Positions 4,010 to 52,314 of a stretch of DNA of 64,000 bases are shown here, piece after piece. Every line of letters starts with the position of its first letter. Within the stretch, counting starts at the first letter, position 1. A model generated the notes under the pieces. It was not told the DNA's origin. It searched no databases and saw only the letters and a list, made by a program, of their open reading frames with translations. This DNA is from Eledone cirrhosa (lineage: Eukaryota). The stretch covers positions 14,942,001 to 15,006,000 of the forward strand of contig OZ024743.1 in the NCBI GenBank assembly GCA_964016885.1, in the 5' to 3' direction. Both the position numbers and the translations under genes were made by a program.

Positions 4010-6650
<2,641 letters not shown>

Positions 6651-7253
6651 TATGTGTGTATGTGTGTGTATGTATATGAATATATATTTTTATATATGTG
6701 TGTGTGTTTTTATGTGTGTATATGTGTTTGTGTGTGTGTTTATGGTTGCGCGTAAGTGTGTGAGTGAGTATGTTTTTTTGTTTTTTTGTTTTTTTGTGAA
6801 TGTGTCTGTTGATTTTTGGCATATAGTTGATTAGTTTAAGAGAAGTTCGAAGATAATAGTAAGATATGCACTCAGTATTTTGAATCTGTCTGCAGAATTC
6901 TCTAGACCTTTGTCACTTAGTAGAACCTTAATGATTTTAGCTTTTAAAGAATCTCCCTTTTCTTTTCAATTCTATCGACCATGACTGACCCCCCCACTGA
7001 TTTTATAGACATCTGTTAGCTTAAGAGAAACTTAATGACAAGGATTGGTATGCCATCCGGAACCTGTTTATAGAATTCTGTCTCCCCTTGTTACTCTAAT
7101 AACATAAATAAATAAAAATAAACTATAGCTTTGTAGAATTAGCTTTTAATGAATTCCCTTTTCTATCAACCAATGACCTGCACCCATCCCACTCCCCACC
7201 CTCTCCTACCACTTGTAGAGACCTATAAATACAATTTTTATTTTTCGATACCC

Positions 7254-7304: not shown

Positions 7305-7625
7305 CATCTATATTAAAACTTTTATACTCTGCTATGTATTGAGTACCTTACTTACTGTGGTTACCTCCGATTCAACCCGGAATAACGTATATATATATAT
7401 ATATATATAGAATGAGTGAGTGAAAGTTGAGGAGAAGGCTAACAGAGAGAGAGACTGCTAGAAAGGGTAAAAACGAACAGACGAGTGTGTAATTGTTTTC
7501 TCGCGCGGTCTTGACCAAGCTGGTATGGACATTTTTTCTCTCTCTCTCTTTCGTCTGCGACTTCACAAAACTTATGTTTACCGAATTCGTAGACCAGACC
7601 CCTTTATCTTCTTCTTCTCTCTTTA

Positions 7626-10600
7626 GATCTTAGAGTCTAAACTTATCTACGGAACAGGTTTGATTTTGAAATTTAAATGTGTCTAAACATCACGGCCCTT
7701 TGGCAATACAGTTCGTCTCCGTTGATTTATTATTTTAAATCGATGTGGACAAACTGTAGTATAATAATTAGTATGCTTCAATCTGGCTAAACTTTTCTTT
7801 TGCAATATATATACAGATGTGTTGGTATCTGTGTTTTATCACTTACATATTAATTTATACACTGCTCAGGGGATTTCATCATTCGAGCTGATTCCATTGT
7901 AAAAGAATTCATTACCTTATTAATTTTAACTGCTCCTAGTTTGAGCTGCAAACCGTCCCATATATACGACTGTTATTTCTAGCAGTACGGTTATGAGACT
8001 AGTTAGATACTGTAAAGCCATGTGCGCCACGCAGTCTTTTAAATTATTTAGAAGTGAAGCATATCAATTTGTCTCTGGATGTTTACTGAGGAGTGCGGGA
8101 CATGACATTCCTACACTTTTTTAACTCGAAACATATTTGGATCTTAAAGTCTAAACTTATCTACGGAACAGGTTTGATTTTGAAATTTAAATGTGTCTAA
8201 ACATCACGGCCCTTTGGCAATACAGTTCGTCTCCGTTGATTTATTATTTTAAATCGATGTGGACAAACTGTAGTATAATAATTAGTATGCTTCAATCTGG
8301 CTAAACTTTTCTTTTGCAATATATATACAGATGTGTTGGTATCTGTGTTTTATCACTTACATATTAATTTGTACACTGCTCAGGGGATTTCCTCATTCGA
8401 GCTGATTCCATTGTAAAAGAATTCATTACCTTATTAATTTTAACTGCTCCTAGTTTGAGCTGCAAACCGTCCCATATATACGACTGTTATTTCTAGCAGT
8501 ACGGTTATGAGACTAGTTAGATACTGTAAAGCCATGTGCGCCACGCAGTCTTTTAAATTATTTAGAAGTGAAGCATATCAATTTGTCTCTGGATGTTTAC
8601 TGAGGAGAGCGGGACATGATATTCCTACACTTTTTTAACTCGAAACATATTTGGATCTTAAAGTCTAAACTTATCTACGGAAGAGGTTTGATTTTGAAAT
8701 TTAAATGTGTCTAAACATCACGGCCCTTTGGCAATACAGTTCGTCTCCGTTGATTTATTATTTTAAATCGATGTGGACAAACTGTAGTATAATAATTAGT
8801 ATGCTTCAATCTGGCTAAACTTTTCTTTTGCAATATATATACAGATGTGTTGGTATCTGTGTTTCATCACTTACATATTAATTTATACACTGCTCAGGGG
8901 ATTTCCTCATTCGAGCTGATTCCATTGTAAAAGAATTCATTACCTTATTAATTTTAACTGCTCCTAGTTCGAGCTGCAAACCGTCCCATATATACGACTG
9001 TTATTTCTAGCAGTACGGTTATGAGACTAGTTAGATACTGTAAAGCCATGTGCGCCACGCAGTCTTTTAAATTATTTAGAAGTGAAGCATATCAATTTGT
9101 CTCTGGATGTTTACTGAGGAGTGCGGCACATGATATTCCTACACTTTTTTAACTCGAAACATATTTGGATCTTAAAGTCTAAACTTATCTACGGAACAGG
9201 TTTGATTTTGAAATTTAAATAGTCTAAACATCACGGCCCTTTGGCAATACAGTTCGTCTCCGTTGATTTATTATTTTAAATCGATGTGGACAAACTGTAG
9301 TATAATAATTAGTATGCTTCAATCTGGCTAAACTTTTCTTTTGCAATATATATACAGATGTGTTGGTATCTGTGTTTCATCACTTACATATTAATTTATA
9401 CACTGCTCAGGGGATTTCCTCATTCGAGCTGATTCCATTGTAAAAGAATTCATTACCTTATTAATTTTAACTGCTCCTAGTTTGAGCTGCAAACCGTCCC
9501 ATATATACGACTGTCATTTCTAGCAGTACGGTTATGAGACTAGTTAGATACTGTAAAGCCATGTGCGCCACGCAGTCTTTGAAATTATTTAGAAGTGAAG
9601 CATATCAATTTGTCTCTGGATGTTTACTGAGGAGGGCGGGACATGATATTCTTACACTTTTTTAACTCGAAACATATTTGGATCTTAAAGTCTAAACTTA
9701 TCTACGGAACAGGTTTGATTTTGAAATTTAAATGTGTCTAAACATCACGGCCCTTTTGCAATACAGTTCGTCTCCGTTGATTTATTATTTTAAATCGATG
9801 TGGACAAACTGTAGTATAATAATTAGTATGCTTCAATCTGGCTAAACTTTTCTTTTGCAATATATATACAGATGTGTTGGTATCTGTGTTTTATCACTTA
9901 CATATTAATTTGTACACTGCTCAGGGGATTTCCTCATTCGAGCTGATTCCATTGTAAAAGAATTCATTACCTTATTAATTTTAACTGCTCCTAGTTTGAG
10001 CTGCAAACCGTCCCATATATACGACTGTTATTTCTAGCAGTACGGTTATGAGACTAGTTAGATACTGTAAAGCCATGTGCGCCACGCAGTCTTTTAAATT
10101 ATTTAGAAGTGAAGCATATCAATTTGTCTCTGGATGTTTACTGAGGAGAGCGGGACATGATATTCCTACACTTTTTTAACTCGAAACATATTTGGATCTT
10201 AAAGTCTAAACTTATCTACGGAACAGGTTTGATTTTGAAATTTAAATGTGTCTAAACATCACGGCCCTTTGGCAATACAGTTCGTCTCCGTTGATTTATT
10301 ATTTTAAATCGATGTGGACAAACTGTAGTATAATAATTAGTATGCTTCAATCTGGCTAAACTTTTCTTTTGCAATATATATACAGATGTGTTGGTATCTG
10401 TGTTTCATCACTTACATATTAATTTATACACTGCTCAGGGGATTTCCTCATTGGAGCTGATTCCATTGTAAAAGAATTCATTACCTTATTAATTTTAACT
10501 GCTCCTAGTTCGAGCTGCAAACCGTCCCATATATACGACTGTTATTTCTAGCAGTACGGTTATGAGACTAGTTAGATACTGTAAAGCCATGTGCGCCACG

Positions 10601-10940
10601 CAGTCTTTTAAATTATTTAGAAGTGAAGCATATCAATTTGTCTCTGGGTGTTTACTGAGGAGAGCGGGACATGATATTCCTACACTTTTTTAACTCGAAA
10701 CATATTTGGATCTTAAAGTCTAAACTTATCTACGGAACAGGTTTGATTTTGAAATTTAAATGTGTCTAAACATCACGGCCCTTTGGCAATAGAGTTCGTC
10801 TCCGTAAATTTATTATTTTAAATCGATGTGGACAAACTGTAGTATAATAATTAGTATGCTTCATTCTGGCTAAACTATTCTTTTGCAATATATATACAGA
10901 TGTGTTGGTATCTGTGTTTCATCACTTACATATTAATTTA
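7626..10940 (+). repeat. Tandem array, 514-bp unit x ~6.45, one hammerhead per unit (retrozyme-like)
   Basis: Unit starts (GATCTT) at 7626, 8140, 8654, 9168, 9681, 10195 and 10709; few substitutions; non-coding; ends in (TA)n. Confidence 0.95.
8078..8205 (+). ncRNA. Type I hammerhead with long stem III (further copies at 8592-8719, 9106-9232, 9619-9746, 10133-10260, 10647-10774)
   Basis: GATGTTTA-CTGAGGA-G(A/T/G)G...CTC-GAAAC-ATATTTGGAT...ATTTAAATGT-GTC-TAAACATC: 8-bp stem I, canonical core, GUC site. Confidence 0.82.
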
Positions 10941-10951
10941 TATATATATAT

Positions 10952-13135
10952 AACGAAGGAAATGTGGTAAGGAACCAGATGGACCATAACGCACCAGAGT
11001 ACTCAATACTTAGGGAGGTAGAGTGGGTAATAGGAACACGTTTAAGTCCGACGGCTGAGCTCGAGCCGTTTCGACGGCTATTCCTGGACTAAATCAACAT
11101 TTTTATCGTGGTATTAAACAGCCGAACTTTTCAAGCAGAAATATCATTCTCCACGCCAGGAAGACAGTCCTCCTTTCCGACAACTCCAAGTGGATAAAGA
11201 AAGCTCCCGACTCCCCCTTCGACGTCAGTATGGTCGCGACCGACTCGGCTGAGGTGACCGATCTTATAGGAGTATTCCTACTACATAAACTCACCGAAAT
11301 GTTTACTGCACTCGGTGGTGAATTGTACCCCAAGGATGGGCTCCTTACCCTCAAAGGGTACAACCCCAGTAGTACAGACCGGGTCCGTAAACAACAAATC
11401 AACTTCTTCCGAGACTGGGGATTTAAAATCACCCTACAAATGTCACTAACCCGAGTCAATTTCCTGGACTTTACCCTCAATCTCGAAAATGATCTGTACT
11501 ACCCATACAGGAAAAAAACGACAAACTTCACTACATTCACCGCCGCTCTAACCATCCTAGAAACATCACCAATAACCTGGTTAAAAACATCTTCCTGGCG
11601 CATATCTCGTGTGTCAGCTAATGAGCAGATATTCGATGAACATGAGCTCATTACAACCAGGCCTTCAAGTGAAGCGGCTTTCGGGAGGAAAACTCCTTTT
11701 ATTCAGCTTCCCTTAGCAGAACCAGCAGGCGACGGCGCCGCTCACGCCTCCTTACGTGGTTCAACGCTCCCCACAATGCCATGGTGGCAATACCAATCAG
11801 GAAAACCTTCTTTAGGCTCCTCGAAAAACACTTCCCACCACAATACCACTACCACAACATAATCAACAAAAACACTATCAAACTCTCCTAGAGCACCACA
11901 CCCAATTTCGCAGAAAATATCGCCTCCTCAAACAACAAGAAACACAACTCCTATGGAATAAACAACCTAGACATTAGTGGAGAGCCGACCAAGAGGTGCA
12001 ACTGCTGGATATATCTACGTGCCCCCTCAACAACAGATGGCGAGAACATAACCTGATCTACCAATGCAAGGTGAGGACGGAAAACTCCAGCAAAGCCTAA
12101 ATAGGATTAACTGCTTGTGACTTTACGACCCGGCTCTACCAACACCGACATACGTTCCGAAACCCAAACCGCGACATTCCGCTACACTTTCGGGCAACAT
12201 CTGGGACATCCAAGATAATAACATAACATACAATCTTACTTGCAGCTTACTGTCCAAGGCTAACTTCTACACGGGAGGACGCCGTCCGTGTAACTTACGC
12301 TCGGAGGAAACAATATAAATGTTGTTTACGAAGGACCAACTCCTAAACGAAAAAGACGAATTTGTAACTGCATGTAAACACCGATTGCGTAGGACTTAGC
12401 TCGCCCTCAAACCTCCTCATGACCCGAGTGGGTATACAATGACTGCAATATCATACTTTTCCCCACTTGACCAACAAGTTAGGGGAAACCCCAGCATATA
12501 TAAGTATATTTACTTCTTTCATTTTTCCCTTTATCTCTTCTTATCACTTCCTTCGACTCCCTCTCCTCTTCCTTTTCCTTTTTCCTCTCTCCCCCACCCT
12601 GAGGACGCCCATTGGGCTTCTTTAGCCTCAGTACCCCACCGCAGTAAATTCTATATAGCATTAGCCGAAAACGCAATACCAGCTAAAAATATAGCAGCTG
12701 CTTTAAACTCTAGAGATGTTTTTATTATTTTTTACTATTTAATTTTTTTATTATTTTTATTTATTATCTTTTAACCTCAATTTATTAACCATTTAATTTT
12801 ATAACGTCCGACTCTCAGATTTTTCGGCTGCTTTCTGCCTAGATTAATTTCATACACACTCCTTAGACTATGCTGTATAGAACTCACATTCAACGCTTGA
12901 CCGCCTCCACCCACTCCCTCATTGTTCTTCAGGCAAGTTCAGCCAAAGCCGAAATGAAAAATGTAATTGTGATTACAAGAAATTTTGACCAATACTTTTG
13001 ACAACTACAATCTTCTCATATAAGGAATTACCTTCTTGAAAATTTCGGCTATTTAACACCACGCTAAAAATTCTAATTTAGTCAAGAAAAAGCCGTCGAA
13101 ACGGCTTGAGCTCTGCCGTCGGGGTTAAACATTTT

Positions 13136-13140
<5 letters not shown>
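10952..13140 (+). mobile_element. Penelope-like element family 2, 5'-truncated and decayed, with inverted 5' pLTR piece (10952-11135)
   Basis: Frameshifted RT (FDVSMVATDSAEVTDLIG, LYPKDG, VNFLDFTL) and GIY-YIG remnants at ~11140-12435, homologous to the ORF at 2349-3659; the pLTR end at 13030-13140 is mirrored at 11030-11135. Confidence 0.88.
13031..13124 (+). ncRNA. Variant hammerhead (U3/A8 core, long stem II)
   Basis: CTTC-TTGAAAA-..CGGCT...AGCCG.C-GAAAC-GGC ttgagctct GCC-GTC-GGGG; homologues on the minus strand at 13196-13290 and 11047-11135. Confidence 0.65.
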
Positions 13141-13180
<40 letters not shown>

Positions 13181-13184
<4 letters not shown>

Positions 13185-14453
13185 AAAAAGTATGACCCCG
13201 ATGGCAGAGCTCAAGCCGTTTCGACGGCTATTTCTGGACTAAATTAGAATGTTTAGCCTGGTGAATAAATAGCCGAACTTGTCAAGAGGGTACTTCCTTA
13301 TATGGAAAGATTGTAGTTGTCAAAAGGATTGGTTAACATTTGTTGTAAACCAAATAAGTCTATCATGGCATTTGGTGGGAGGTAGGGGGGAGCTGAAATT
13401 GCCTGTAGAACAATAGACGAGTGAGTGGCGCGGTCAAGCGTTGAAAGTGATATGTATACAGCAGATACTAAGGATAGTGTATGAAGTGGAGGAGGGAGGT
13501 AATAGAATAGGTAAATCGAATGAGAGTAGGAGACGATAAAATATAATAGAAAGAAATAAAAAAATATATAAAATTAGATAGTGAGAAATGAACAAAAAAA
13601 TCACAATGCTATCTTACAATTACAGGTTAATAAGTTGAGAATAGAAAAAAACTTGTAGAAATTGAGTAGTAACAACATTAAAGGGGTTTAACCCAACTGC
13701 TATAAGTAAAACGTATTCGGTAAATTCTATCTTTAAAATACAGGGGTGAGGGAACTGATGCTACAGAGCCAGATGCGCTGCATCAGGTTAGACGAAAGGG
13801 GTAAATCAGACGAGGAAGAAAATAGGGAGTGGAAGGAAGTGATAGGATGAGACATGGGAAAGAAGAAGAAAAAGAGGAAAAGAAAAGAGATACATCTACC
13901 TATGTACGCTGGGGTTCCCCTAACTTATTCGGCAAGGGGGGGGGGGGGGTATCAGCCCTTGTCTACCCACCCGAGTGTTTATGGGGTTTGAGGGCGAGGT
14001 AAGTCCTACGCAATATTTGTTTGCATGCGGTTACCAGTTCGTCTTTCTTGTTTAGGAGTTGGTCCTTCGAAAACAGCATTTGTAATGTATCCTCCGAGCA
14101 TAAGTTACACGGACGGCATCCTCCCGTGTAAGAGATTGTTCTGGACAGTAAGCTCCAAGTGAGATTGTAGGTTATATTATAATCTCGGAGGTCGCAGATG
14201 TGGCCCGAAAGTGTAGTGGCATGTCGCCGGACTGGGTTTCGGAAAGTATGTCGGTGTTGGTAGAGCGGGGTCTTGAAGTCACACGCGGTTAATCCTATAT
14301 AAGCTTTGTTGTAGGTGCCCAGAAATAGCCGTCGAAACGGCTTGAGCTCTGCCGTCGGGGTCACACTTTTTCCCTATTTCCCACTCTACTACCCTAAGTA
14401 TTGAGTACTCTCGTGCGTTATAGTCCATCTGGTTCCTTTCCGCACTTCCATTG
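13181..14453 (-). mobile_element. Penelope-like element family 2, 3' fragment (GIY-YIG end + pLTR) with inverted tail at 14320-14453
   Basis: ORF 13963..14364 contains [13 protein letters not shown]...HRHTF...CNLCSE...LLNKKDELVTAC; homologous to 12090-13140; tail-to-tail with the previous element across (TA)n 13139-13181. Confidence 0.88.
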
Positions 14454-14539
14454 TTATATATATATATGTGTGTGTGTGTATATGTATGTATATATATATA
14501 TGTGTTTATATATATATATATGTATATATATGTACATAT

Positions 14540-14590
<51 letters not shown>

Positions 14591-14602
<12 letters not shown>

Positions 14603-16961
14603 TATAGACATAGAATATTCGAAAATATTCTGTATGTTTATAATAAACATTTTGAAGACCTAATCGCTATAGAATAGAATACGTCACGTATTACAATTAG
14701 ATTCTCGATAAAAGCAAGGGAAGTAATCTACGCGTTTCATTCTTGTTAGAATTCATCAGGACTACATATCCAGTGCTTTTATCGAGAATGACACAGCTAG
14801 AGACTTATAGAATACTTAGCTGTGTACAGGAACTGGTTTGAAAGAGCGGTTGCCGGTCCGGCAGAAATTAGAAATTGGAATAAATGCTCTGAAATAGCGA
14901 TATATATATGAATATAGACATAGAATATTCGAAAATATTCTGTATGTTTATAATAAACATTTTGAAGACCTAATCGCTATAGAATAGAATACGTCACGTA
15001 TTACAATTAGATTCTCGATAAAAGCAAGGGAAGTAATCTACGCGTTTCATTCTTGTTAGAATTCATCAGGACTACATATCCAGTGCTTTTATCGAGAATG
15101 ACACAGCTAGAGACTTATAGAATACTTAGCTGTGTACAGGAACTGGTTTGAAAGAGCGGTTGCCGGTCCGGCAGAAATTAGAAATTGGAATAAATGCTCT
15201 GAAATAGCGATATATATATGAATATAGACATAGAATATTCGAAAATATTCTGTATGTTTATAATAAACATTTTGAAGACCTAATCGCTATAGAATAGAAT
15301 ACGTCACGTATTACAATTAGATTCTCGATAAAAGCAAGGGAAGTAATCTACGCGTTTCATTCTTGTTAGAATTCATCAGGACTACATATCCAGTGCTTTT
15401 ATCGAGAATGACACAGCTAGAGACTTATAGAATACTTAGCTGTGTACAGGAACTGGTTTGAAAGAGCGGTTGCCGGTCCGGCAGAAATTAGAAATTGGAA
15501 TAAATGCTCTGAAATAGCGATATATATATGAATATAGACATAGAATATTCGAAAATATTCTGTATGTTTATAATAAACATTTTGAAGACCTAATCGCTAT
15601 AGAATAGAATACGTCACGTATTACAATTAGATTCTCGATAAAAGCAAGGGAAGTAATCTACGCGTTTCATTCTTGTTAGAATTCATCAGGACTACATATC
15701 CAGTGCTTTTATCGAGAATGACACCTAATTTCTGCCGGACCGGCAACCGCTCTTTCAAACCAGTTCCTGTACACAGCTAAGTATTCTATAAGTCTCTAGC
15801 TGTGTCATTCTCGATAAAAGCACTGGATATGTAGTCCTGATGAATTCTAACAAGAATGAAACGCGTAGATTACTTCCCTTGCTTTTATCGAGAATCTAAT
15901 TGTAATACGTGACGTATTCTATTCTATAGCGATTAGGTCTTCAAAATGTTTATTATAAACATACAGAATATTTTCGAATATTCTATGTCTATATTCATAT
16001 ATATATCGCTATTTCAGAGCATTTATTCCAATTTCTAATTTCTGCCGGACCGGCAACCGCTCTTTCAAACCAGTTCCTGTACACAGCTAAGTATTCTATA
16101 AGTCTCTAGCTGTGTCATTCTCGATAAAAGCACTGGATATGTAGTCCTGATGAATTCTAACAAGAATGAAACGCGTAGATTACTTCCCTTGCTTTTATCG
16201 AGAATCTAATTGTAATACGTGACGTATTCTATTCTATAGCGATTAGGTCTTCAAAATGTTTATTATAAACATACAGAATATTTTCGAATATTCTATGTCT
16301 ATATTCATATATATATCGCTATTTCAGAGCATTTATTCCAATTTCTAATTTCTGCCGGACCGGCAACCGCTCTTTCAAACCAGTTCCTGTACACAGCTAA
16401 GTATTCTATAAGTCTCTAGCTGTGTCATTCTCGATAAAAGCACTGGATATGTAGTCCTGATGAATTCTAACAAGAATGAAACGCGTAGATTACTTCCCTT
16501 GCTTTTATCGAGAATCTAATTGTAATACGTGACGTATTCTATTCTATAGCGATTAGGTCTTCAAAATGTTTATTATAAACATACAGAATATTTTCGAATA
16601 TTCTATGTCTATATTCATATATATATCGCTATTTCAGAGCATTTATTCCAATTTCTAATTTCTGCCGGACCGGCAACCGCTCTTTCAAACCAGTTCCTGT
16701 ACACAGCTAAGTATTCTATAAGTCTCTAGCTGTGTCATTCTCGATAAAAGCACTGGATATGTAGTCCTGATGAATTCTAACAAGAATGAAACGCGTAGAT
16801 TACTTCCCTTGCTTTTATCGAGAATCTAATTGTAATACGTGACGTATTCTATTCTATAGCGATTAGGTCTTCAAAATGTTTATTATAAACATACAGAATA
16901 TTTTCGAATATTCTATGTCTATATTCATATATATATCGCTATTTCAGAGCATTTATTCCAA

Positions 16962-16969
<8 letters not shown>
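14591..16969. repeat. Palindromic tandem array, 310-bp unit: ~3.65 copies (hammerhead on -) then 4 copies (hammerhead on +), inversion at 15724/15725
   Basis: Left units at 14600, 14910, 15220, 15530; right units at 15725, 16035, 16345, 16655 are their reverse complement; no differences seen between copies by eye; (TA)n on both sides. Confidence 0.96.
15831..15873 (+). ncRNA. Minimal type I hammerhead (also + 16141-16183, 16451-16493, 16761-16803; - 14723-14765, 15033-15075, 15343-15385, 15653-15695)
   Basis: GTAGTC-CTGATGA-ATTC taacaa GAAT-GAAAC-GC-GTA-GATTAC; palindromic stem III (ACGCGT); stem I extended by the perfect 16-bp helix ATTCTCGATAAAAGCA/TGCTTTTATCGAGAAT. Confidence 0.92.
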
Positions 16970-32100: not shown

Positions 32101-34023
32101 TGTCATTCAGTATGAAGACATGGAAAACGACACTCCTTTTGAGTAGTGAAACAAAATCACTGGAAGCTGGAGAAGTTAATATTAATTGTGGAATTTTTCA
32201 GGGTGACTCTTTATCACCGCTTTTATTCTGCATCGCGCTTATACCATTAAGTAAAATGCTCAATGAAACAAAACATGGATATAAAGTCTATGACAAAACC
32301 ATTAATCACCTGTTCTACTTGGATGACCTGAAACTATTTGCAAAAAATGATGAACAATTGCAAGGTCTATTATCCACTGTGAATCAGTTCAGTGATGACA
32401 TTAAAATGGAGTTTGGACTAGATAAATGCGCCAAAGCAACGTTCACCAGAGGAAAGCTGCTGAAGAGTTCAGACATTAATCTTGATCGGGGGAACGTGAT
32501 AAGAGAACTTGATCAAGAAAAAATTTACAAATATCTAGGTGTTTGTGAAGGAGACGGAATCAAGCACTCGACAATGAGGGAAAGGATAAGGAAGGAATGT
32601 TACCGCAGAGTCAGAGCAATCTTAAGAACAGAATTGAATGCAAGGAATAGGATCGATGCCATAAACACGCTTGCCCTACCAGTAGTAACCTACAGTTACA
32701 ATGTCATCAACTGGTCAAGCACAGAGATCCGTAGGCTCGATACAAAAATTCGAAAATTCTTAACCATGCACAGAATGCATCACCCTAAGGCAGATATAGA
32801 TAGAATATATCTCCCTAGAAAAGAAGGAGGACGTGGGTTAATCCAGTTAGACATTGCGTTGAAAACTGCAACAATTGGATTATCTACATTTCTAAGGGAA
32901 TCACATGGTTGGATGATCAAACTCGTTTTGAAACACGAAAGAATCAAAAGATCATATTCCATTACAAAAGATGCACAAAGATACAGTAATGGACTACAAA
33001 TTTCAGAAGTCCCATTAACTGCTGAAATGGAAAACACAGAAAAAGCAAAGCAGGTAAAAGTAACTGCAAAGAAAGAACTGCTACAGAAACTGGCTAAGAA
33101 ATGGCAAGAAAAGCCTCTGTATGGAAAATACCCAGAGCGAGCTAACAATCCTGATGTTGACAAAACTTTAACTCATCAGTGGTTGGCATCCTCTGGACTG
33201 AAATCGGAGACTGAAGGACTGATTATATCAGCACAAGATCAGTGTCTGCCAACAAAAAATTACCAAGCCAACATAATAAAAAATGGATACAGCCCATTAT
33301 GCCGTGTATGCAAAAAAACAACCAGAGACCATTGACCATATAATTTCAATGTGCAGTCCTATAGCTCCAACCGAATACCTAAACAGGCATGACAGAGCTG
33401 CACAATACATACATTGGATAATGTGTAAGCATTTTGACCTGCCCCATCAAAAGAATTGGTGGGAGCATCAACCACCTACCATACTTGAAAAAGATCACAT
33501 CTCAAACTTGTGGAACTTTAGCATCCAAACAGACCGAAAAATAGATGCATATAGACCTGATATAATATTGAAGGACTTTAAAAAGAGGGTATGCCTGCTA
33601 ATTGATATGTCTGTTCCAATAGACAAGAATGTATCTATAAAAACATTTGAAAAATTGAGCAAGTATAAGGACCTGGAGATAGAAATTGGAAACATGTGGG
33701 AATTGAGAACTAAAACAATACCAGTGGTTGTAGGCGCTCTGGGAATGATACCTAAGGCGTCTAATGATTACTTATCGCAAATCCCAGGAAACCCGCGTAT
33801 AGGAGAAATACAAAAGATAGTACTAATGGGAACTGCCCATATACTAAGGAAGATTCTGTCAATATAAGTACATCACAAGTCTAAACACTAAAGATGCATG
33901 TGTGAGTATGTATGTTCTTCCTTGAACATGGCGGACCTTGTTGTCTCTTGAGGTCACTGGTTGTGACTTGGTGATAACTCGTATGAACATAAAGCAAGAT
34001 AAATGCAACTGTAATAATAATAA
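29108..34023 (+). mobile_element. R4/Dong-type non-LTR retrotransposon family A, full-length but disrupted
   Basis: Collinear with 58930-63785 from GCTCCCGTAAG onward; ORF 30217-33867 broken by a stop (31231) and frameshifts (~31965, ~33315); ends in (TAA)n. Confidence 0.93.
30217..33867 (+). pseudogene. RT + zinc finger + restriction-like endonuclease polyprotein, disrupted
   Basis: Four ORF fragments (30217..31233, 31273..32010, 32034..33335, 33283..33867) match successive parts of the 1216-aa ORF at 59994..63644; YLDD instead of YMDD. Confidence 0.93.
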
Positions 34024-34175
34024 TCAATATAAGTACATTACAAGTCTAAACACTAAAGATGCATGTGTGAGTATGTATGTTCTTTCTTGAACATGGCGGA
34101 CCTTGTTGTCTCTTGAGGTCACTGGTTGTGACTTGGTGATAACTCGTATAAACATAAAGCAAGATAAATGCAACT

Positions 34176-34216
<41 letters not shown>
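34024..34216 (+). repeat. Second copy of the Dong-A 3' end plus (TAA)n
   Basis: 34024-34180 repeats 33859-34015 with a few substitutions. Confidence 0.9.
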
Positions 34217-51430: not shown

Positions 51431-51520
51431 AATGTGTATATCATTGAATTAACAGCAATTACCGCTCGATTAATGTTTTACATCTCTCCAAATCACACTC
51501 CCAATATTATTATTAAAGAA

Positions 51521-51909
51521 AAGGGCGGTGGATTGGCAGTATCGGTAGACGGTGCTTTTACGCATAGAGTTACGGCGCTTGTCATTCTGAGATCAAATCC
51601 CGCCAAGGTTAACTTTGCCTTTCATCCTTACGGGGGTCGATAAAATAAAGTACCAGTAATAAAAACTGGGTAATTGCTGGCCTTGTGCCTAAAGTAGAAA
51701 CAATTATTAAAGAAAAGGGCGGTGAATTGGCAGTATCGGTAGAGGGTCGGACGCCATGCTTTGACGCAGAGAATTACAGCCCTTGCCATTCTGAGTTCAA
51801 ATCCCGCCGAGGTTAACTTTGCCTTTCATCCTAACGTGGGTCGATAAAATAAAGTACCAGTAATACACTGGGATCATTGCTGGCCTTGTGCCTATTGTAG
51901 AAACAATTA
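51521..51909 (+). mobile_element. Tandem pair of tRNA-derived SINEs (51521-51708, 51716-51909)
   Basis: A-box-like TGGCAGTATCGG, B-box GAGTTCAAATCC, shared body, ATT tail; both preceded by ATTAAAGAAAA. Confidence 0.85.
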
Positions 51910-52314
51910 TTATTAAAGAAAAGATAATATAAAACTATTTGCGTATTTTTAATAATCAAGAATACTATTCCGCAATGTAAGACAATTCAGCATAAAAAGT
52001 CTATTTTTAATGACAGAACCAAAATCTCAGTTCTGGTTGTTATTACGTACATGGTGTTCTCTCAGAAAAACGGTCGATTGTTATAGAGGAATTAAAGTAT
52101 TACAATCTATTGTTTGAATTGATATATGAATTTTAAGAAATCCATGAAAATTACCATTTAGATATAACGATAAAATAATTATAGAAAATGATACCAAACT
52201 TTATCCGATACGATGTGGGCATGTTTCATTAAATGCATGAAATATTATGTAAAAAGAAGCAACAAGTTAACAACAATGGTAGATGGAACAAGCCTATATA
52301 AAAATTTCCCTCGT

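Follow-up and report, generated by a model that had tools for sequence, protein, structure and literature searches.

What kind of element is a 514-bp tandem repeat whose RNA is predicted to fold as a hammerhead ribozyme, and does the second GUC that it carries offer this ribozyme a choice of cut sites? These questions are raised by a retrozyme array of 6.5 units of 514 bp, located at positions 7622-10942 of the window, which is the name given here to the whole stretch of 64,000 nucleotides of Eledone cirrhosa DNA that was analysed. The following sections describe the array, its predicted ribozyme, the family to which it belongs and the ends of its insertions, and then weigh the explanations that can be offered for them.

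Structure of the array

The units are numbered from the first base 3′ of the predicted cut (u1), and with this numbering the array is composed as follows:

7622-10942, + strand: array formed by a partial unit (u453-514, 62 nt), six full units of 513-514 nt and a second partial unit (u1-176, 176 nt)

The successive spacings between units are 514, 514, 513, 514, 514 and 514. The sequence GTCTAAAC starts at 8149 and again at 8195, and both places are repeated in every unit; the facts from which an earlier note on this DNA departed, namely the 514-bp array and these two occurrences, all hold. The unit has a GC content of 0.34 and its longest frames span 50-64 codons, none of them long, and a scan of its frames found no RT and GIY-YIG reading frame. 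The 514-bp element is non-autonomous and non-coding. The units of the window differ by 2-7 bases and the variants are shared among them, which is more than one clean pass over one circle would give.

The predicted ribozyme

Each full junction contains stem I (GAUGUUUA/UAAACAUC), the core CUGAGGA, a 3-bp stem II with a large loop, GAAA, stem III and GUC. Six complete ribozymes are present in the array, and they are listed here together with the two features of stem III that are discussed below:

8078-8205, + strand: hammerhead copy 1, type I; stem I at 8078-8085/8198-8205, CUGAGGA at 8086-8092, GAAA at 8128-8131, U-U in stem II, predicted cut after 8197
8592-8719, + strand: hammerhead copy 2; intact 3-bp stem II (GAG/CUC), predicted cut after 8711
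9106-9232, + strand: hammerhead copy 3; stem II contains a U-U and stem III has lost 1 nt, predicted cut (likely weak) after 9224
9619-9746, + strand: hammerhead copy 4; G-U in stem II, predicted cut after 9738
10133-10260, + strand: hammerhead copy 5; predicted cut after 10252
10647-10774, + strand: hammerhead copy 6; A-U changed to G-U in stem I, predicted cut after 10766
8645-8710, + strand: stem III of copy 2; 26 bp plus a 2-bp tip, six G-U pairs, folding on the + strand only, 96% of cells paired in 20 relatives
8149-8156, + strand: proximal GTCTAAAC, within the 5′ arm of stem III; no conserved second cut site

In the minimum-energy fold stem I has 8 bp, stem III is formed by 26 bp and a 2-bp tip (six of the 26 pairs are G-U), and the proximal GUC is buried in stem III. 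The G-U-rich stem III of about 27 bp and the distal register with its 8-bp stem I, both proposed in the earlier note, are borne out by this computation, as is the observation that the last copy keeps stem I through a change from A-U to G-U, which is found in copy 6. The ribozyme fold (8589-8722) has a z of -4.3 and none of 200 shuffles was as good, while stem III alone reaches a z of -6.3 on the + strand and -0.8 on the opposite strand, an asymmetry that is expected of a G-U-rich hairpin working as an RNA of one polarity. A further hairpin to which attention had been drawn, at 7707-7758, is real (z -7.1), but it also folds on the other strand (z -6.1).

The motifs CUGANGA, GAAA and NUH follow one another in this order and the open end lies at stem I, as in type I hammerheads; according to these fold predictions, the unit carries a type I hammerhead fold with one conserved predicted cut site. 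At the gathering score, Rfam recognizes nothing in the window, hammerheads included; the best score for the ribozyme is 14.6 bits (E 3.9), and all Rfam matches to it are at chance level, several of them (E 3-10) being microRNA models that fall on stem III. The Rfam hammerhead models do not cover stems II and III of such length. In the available text of its description, the mussel retrozyme lacks the typical contact residues between loop 1 and loop 2 (PMC7229834), and the same may hold for this ribozyme.

The conservation of the fold was examined in a set of 20 ribozymes from several subfamilies, made up of the window copy and 19 of 22 representatives (the other three, which have insertions, were excluded). 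Distal stem I shows two-sided changes at 5/8 pairs, in 27 cells, a value that none of 500 shuffles reaches; the 20 aligned rows are related, so that these cells are not independent events, and at least four stem I types are present. The first two pairs of stem II are invariant in the 20 rows. In stem III 96% of cells are paired and there are eight one-sided changes that preserve pairing; two-sided changes are absent from the 20 rows, and one pair is open in 12/20.

Copies 1 and 3 have U-U at the second pair of stem II, a feature absent from the earlier note. The base concerned, u411 (positions 8094, 8608, 9122, 9635, 10149 and 10663), reads T, A, T, G, A and A in the six copies; across the family all four bases occur at it, 14/96 copies differ, and variation within an array is seen in 2/9 arrays. 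From the sequences compared, this variability might reflect a copying hot spot, or else selection for weak ribozymes. Because the core can pair with stem II, the predicted ensemble is more stable than the catalytic fold by about 6 kcal/mol, a difference that grows to about 12.5 in copies 1 and 3, with their U-U in stem II. In a similar test the value was 6.7 kcal/mol for the classic ribozyme of a 310-bp family and 0.5 kcal/mol for the ribozyme of an intact Penelope-like element (PLE), both of which are described below.

The earlier suggestion that the long stem III could allow the monomer to cut itself is supported as a prediction: with a long stable stem III, and without a short palindromic loop, a dimer should not be needed.

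A dispersed family and its sister group

The 514-bp family has 1,163 first-look candidates in the genome, and a 17-nt pattern of stem I and core gives 612 exact genome matches, with 0 for the control. A sister group, reached via a variant noticed in a contig-run variant table, gives 694 exact matches to a 26-nt pattern (control 0); its units measure about 540-600 nt and have 74-80% identity to the 514-bp unit. Sister subfamilies of 539-596 nt were read (L220 unit; L206:1527-2073), one of them with an internal duplication of about 50 nt between the two sites, A and B, that are defined in the next section.

Stem III identity in the sister group is 88-96%, against 74-80% for the rest of the unit, at loci that were found using part of stem III itself; at loci found through stem I the excess is small (85 vs 82%; 93-96 vs 89%). 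The depth of contigs also peaks over stem III, and a second role of this stem is possible.

A non-LTR retrozyme is recognized by at least two consecutive hammerhead units, and the window has six consecutive ones. There is no LTR architecture, and the ends of the family are internal sites in (TA)n. By those of its features that can be read in the genome, the 514-bp unit is a dispersed family of animal non-LTR retrozymes, for which circles and cleavage are predictions. The structured circular RNA that the earlier note had expected is likewise retained as a prediction, the unit being a likely circular-RNA element.

Insertion ends in (TA)n

Insertion ends were read at 73 unselected loci, which are all those behind the first 100 core matches in genome order (seven came from earlier fetches). 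They gave 124 arm pieces and, once four had been dropped (one belonging to a sister copy next door, two forming a duplicated pair and one being small and internal), 120 3′ ends. Most of these ends (110/120) fall at two places of the unit, about 65 nt apart: site A (u159-179, most often 176) accounts for 55 and site B (u229-245, most often 239-241) for another 55, the other 10 lying outside both, and (TA)n is found within 16 nt of 111/120. Loci that are head-to-head, with both 3′ ends outward, number 47 of the 73, and they comprise 38 A+B pairs, 0 A+A, 0 B+B and 9 with one end elsewhere; the three sister loci with both ends scored are all A+B. The arm pieces exceed one unit in 58/124 cases and two units in 7/124, and their 5′ ends are scattered.

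Two simple ways of setting these ends were considered and rejected. The unit's own best TA run (u122-130) holds only 3/120 of the 3′ ends and u277-283 holds 0/120, so best homology to (TA)n does not determine where the ends fall. Nor are the 5′ ends set by ribozyme cutting, since clustering at the cut site was not seen among them (4/124, with about 4.8 expected). The 91/120 arms that cross the cut site are not counted as evidence, that number being biased by the search pattern. Sites A and B lie in long unpaired stretches of the predicted circle and have in common, as judged by eye, the motif UCAUYAC...AUUAAU.

The sites and the flanks of the window copy are the following:

10933-10942, + strand: site A (u167-176), where the array ends 3′ and passes into (TA)n; putative start of reverse transcription
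10481-10497, + strand: site B in the last full unit (u229-245); the family's other fixed 3′ end, unused as an end in the window copy
10939-10952, no strand assigned: (TA)n target, common to the window array and the 3′ end of the neighbouring Penelope-like remnant
7409-7623, no strand assigned: piece of repeat family X; its inverted arm (7409-7487) has (TA)n at its end, and its direct piece (7485-7623) is joined to the array on the 5′ side

The window copy ends at site A in a short (TA)n and is without an inverted arm of its own. Its 5′ end is joined to 140 nt of family X, and the inverted arm of this X piece reaches the left (TA)n; the 514-bp unit has no significant similarity to family X, and a fusion of this kind was found at 0/26 single-arm loci of the 514-bp family. 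Two origins would explain it: the template was switched in the course of a single event, or the array was inserted, with a deletion, into a copy of X that was already there. This mobile-element context of the array had escaped the earlier note.

Family X itself (window 7409-7623; L239:1516-2238) has a unit of about 720 nt that includes a (CTT)n tract; there are 1,636 first-look candidates for it, its 3′ ends fall at two fixed places and lie in (TA)n, and it occurs in both tandem and inverted copies. CTGATGA and GAAA are present in it, their canonical hammerhead order is absent and Rfam gives no ribozyme match; it is possible that the family holds a ribozyme of another type. A second retrozyme family occupies window 14590-16969, where a 310-bp unit with a classic hammerhead of tiny stem III forms a head-to-head array between (TA)n. 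A pattern search gives 2,528 exact genome matches to it; 8/9 other loci that were read are inverted, with ends mostly at u139 and u165-172 that follow the same end rule, and arms of up to about 20 near-identical units. Just to the left of the cluster of insertions that includes the 514-bp array, window 4063-6744 is occupied by about 2.6 kb of degenerate (TA/TG)n, and several PLE-type insertions crowd the TA-rich region. Two-copy tandem repeats of 165 and 204 bp lie at window 33859-34193 and 51509-51912.

Penelope-like elements as the likely source of the enzyme

The element next to the array is the following:

10947-12437, no single strand: decayed Penelope-like neighbour, with an inverted arm at 10947-11135 (- strand) and a broken RT/GIY-YIG frame at 11137-12437 (+ strand), 82-92% like the intact family

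This remnant is an insertion separate from the array. Its broken frame led to a young PLE family with an intact frame of 717 aa (L073:1767-5297, with a tandem period of 3,531 bp), several decayed copies of which lie at window 10947-14460 and 697-926. In the hammerhead of the intact PLE the core is a U3-A8 variant, and stem III has 6 bp and carries a palindromic loop. The top homologue of its protein carries GIY-YIG; the 717-aa protein has no Pfam or PDB match, and its identity rests on homologues and motifs.

The intact PLE ends about +20 or +100 past its own hammerhead cut, always in (TA)n, and the inverted copies that were read have one end site per arm (e.g. L075, L076, L077, L082, L086, L088 and L092). 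Since this PLE obeys the same one-site-per-arm rule as the retrozyme, it is likely that it or a relative copies the retrozyme RNA. The 514-bp unit has no significant similarity to the intact PLE, and no significant match to any of the 32 PLE loci fetched (there are 30,625 first-look PLE candidates); a kinship of the retrozyme unit with the pseudo-LTR of a PLE, as described by Li et al. 2026, was looked for among these 32 loci. In the available text of the earlier studies, PLEs are described with an inverted arm and a one-sided tail (Craig et al. 2021, PMC8557442), and a PLE in vitro is reported to use two internal start sites, both target strands being cut and extended (Frangieh et al. 2024, PMC11167929); the end pattern seen here is the one given in the former and fits the finding of the latter.

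Mechanism and alternative explanations

The reading that we hold with good confidence is that the 514-bp repeat has a type I fold with one cut site and a 26-bp stem III, that it is predicted to cut itself as a monomer, and that it is likely to form a circle and to be copied by a PLE into (TA)n. Tandem copies would be transcribed and the RNA cut once per unit, as the available account of known retrozymes suggests (PMC7229834), and stems I and III would hold the ends of the monomer together for ligation to a circle. Following what is known from PLE work, a PLE-like enzyme would then cut (TA)n on both strands, and copying would begin at each of the two DNA ends, at A for one and at B for the other, and run round the circle (6.5 turns here), after which the two copied products would be joined. 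Arms longer than one unit fit a circular template, a linear multimer being also possible for them. In the available part of a recent study, 1/9 tested Xenopus retrozymes cleaved in vitro (10.64898/2026.07.22.740005), so cleavage of the 514-bp unit should not be assumed.

Another way of explaining the same data is to keep the element and the enzyme and to take as template an uncut linear multi-unit transcript from a source array, with a ribozyme that is slow or protein-dependent. This has a small probability, which it owes to the shared variants and 2-7 base differences of the window units, to the prediction of the active fold as a minority state, and to the anole PLE, which in the available in vitro account used unprocessed RNA and had a ribozyme that cut only with protein (PMC11167929). 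The absence of 5′ end clustering at the cut site speaks against a linear template, and so do the runs of identical units in other arrays (L008, L198 and L199), the arms of about 20 near-identical units in the 310-bp family and the covariation, which indicates that the ribozyme fold is maintained; tested retrozymes, moreover, accumulate as circles in the available text of PMC7229834.

Returning to the circular template, a tentative extension, of which we are more doubtful than convinced, is that a Penelope-type enzyme acting as a dimer holds one circle by two single-stranded motifs, AU/AC-rich and repeated, with each subunit committed to one site and to one side of a double-strand break and with rolling from both, and that the 66-nt hairpin of stem III is a second module (a docking site or a small-RNA precursor) kept beyond catalytic need. 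If this were true, the strict A+B pairing (38/38) would be a direct genomic record of an unresolved step of PLE integration.

The next explanation is the one that the earlier note had put forward, namely two competing registers, in which the core would use the proximal or the distal GUC and give two products. What recommends it is a perfect 5-bp proximal stem I with GUC in the young lineage of the window (34/96 copies), together with the TAAAC kept at the proximal place in 94/96 copies. The triplets were surveyed in 96 ribozyme copies from chromosome 1 (101 were extracted, and five that were truncated or motif-deleted were dropped): the proximal one is GTT in 60/96 copies and GTC in 34/96, and the distal one is GTC in 82/96 and GTA in 12/96. 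One sample provided two contig runs whose kind is unrecorded, and in these T makes up about 88% and 87% of the depth at the proximal C. The predominance of GTT is by itself not decisive, because GUU, which is listed as cleavable in the available text of PMC3138052, can still be cut.

The question is decided by the relatives. The proximal strand shows two-sided changes at 0/5 pairs and one of its pairs is unpaired in 9/20 rows, and proximal stem I is mismatched in 11/14 sister loci, against 1/14 for the same five distal pairs. Constrained folding makes the proximal fold less favourable than the distal one by 14-21 kcal/mol in each of the six window copies, both locally and in the circle, and even when the 3′ arm is left out, as in a nascent transcript, the proximal fold exceeds the ensemble by 13-17 kcal/mol. 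Given that the proximal strand never covaries while distal stem I does, the two-register switch is not supported and was rejected, being highly improbable. The TAAAC is kept because it pairs with GUUU/GGUUUG in stem III, and the proximal GTCTAAAC would be a by-product of the stem III sequence.

Finally, almost no credence can be given to a local satellite grown by unequal crossing-over with an incidental ribozyme-like fold, for which the tandem array and the variants shared among units (these suggest some exchange after insertion) could be quoted, since it is contradicted by hundreds of dispersed copies, fixed 3′ ends in (TA)n and inverted arms, and by the covariation of stem I.

Comparison with known systems

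According to the available portions of the published descriptions, animal non-LTR retrozymes form circles (Cervera and de la Pena 2020, PMC7229834) and have units of 51-972 bp (Li, Clavereau and Pollet 2026, 10.64898/2026.07.22.740005). The 514-bp unit resembles them, as described there, in being a non-coding tandem unit with a GC content below 50% and one type I hammerhead, in its self-paired predicted circle, in its co-occurrence with PLEs and in a length within the 51-972 bp range. It differs in its stem III, of 26 bp instead of 1-2 bp with a tetraloop, in being longer than the tested retrozyme circles of 170-400 nt, and in its lack of homology to the PLE examined. Among the main texts of mostly open papers that were searched, no insertion-end analysis of retrozymes and no retrozyme with a long stem III was found; the supplementary figures of PMC7229834 may show variants with a long helix III.

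The likeness to endonuclease-bearing PLEs, as far as the available text of PMC8557442 and PMC11167929 describes them, extends to microsatellite targets, 5′ truncation, partial tandems, an inverted upstream arm, a tail at one end only and two internal start sites. Unlike PLEs so described, the 514-bp unit encodes no protein and its arms exceed one unit, its tail is of about 65 nt instead of 30-40, and its start sites share AT microhomology of a few bases with the target, which sets them apart from those of the anole PLE in vitro (PMC11167929). With the minimal PLE hammerheads that cleave as dimers, in the available account of PMC6765202, the ribozyme shares the type I topology and the core; the dimer-type hammerheads of that account and of the available part of PMC6155905 differ from it in that here stem III is long and stable and there is no short palindromic loop.

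Significance of the family

The class itself is already known, and what is new here is the long stem III and the covariation test; with the class known and the proposed switch fallen away, the element is mostly ordinary. The Rfam models miss this natural type I hammerhead with its stem III of 26 bp, and this suggests that elements of the kind are undercounted by standard scans. The insertion ends offer genomic support, in a form that can be counted, to the published, unproven idea that Penelope-like enzymes move animal retrozymes, and the rule of one site per arm provides a sharp prediction for the existing in vitro PLE system.
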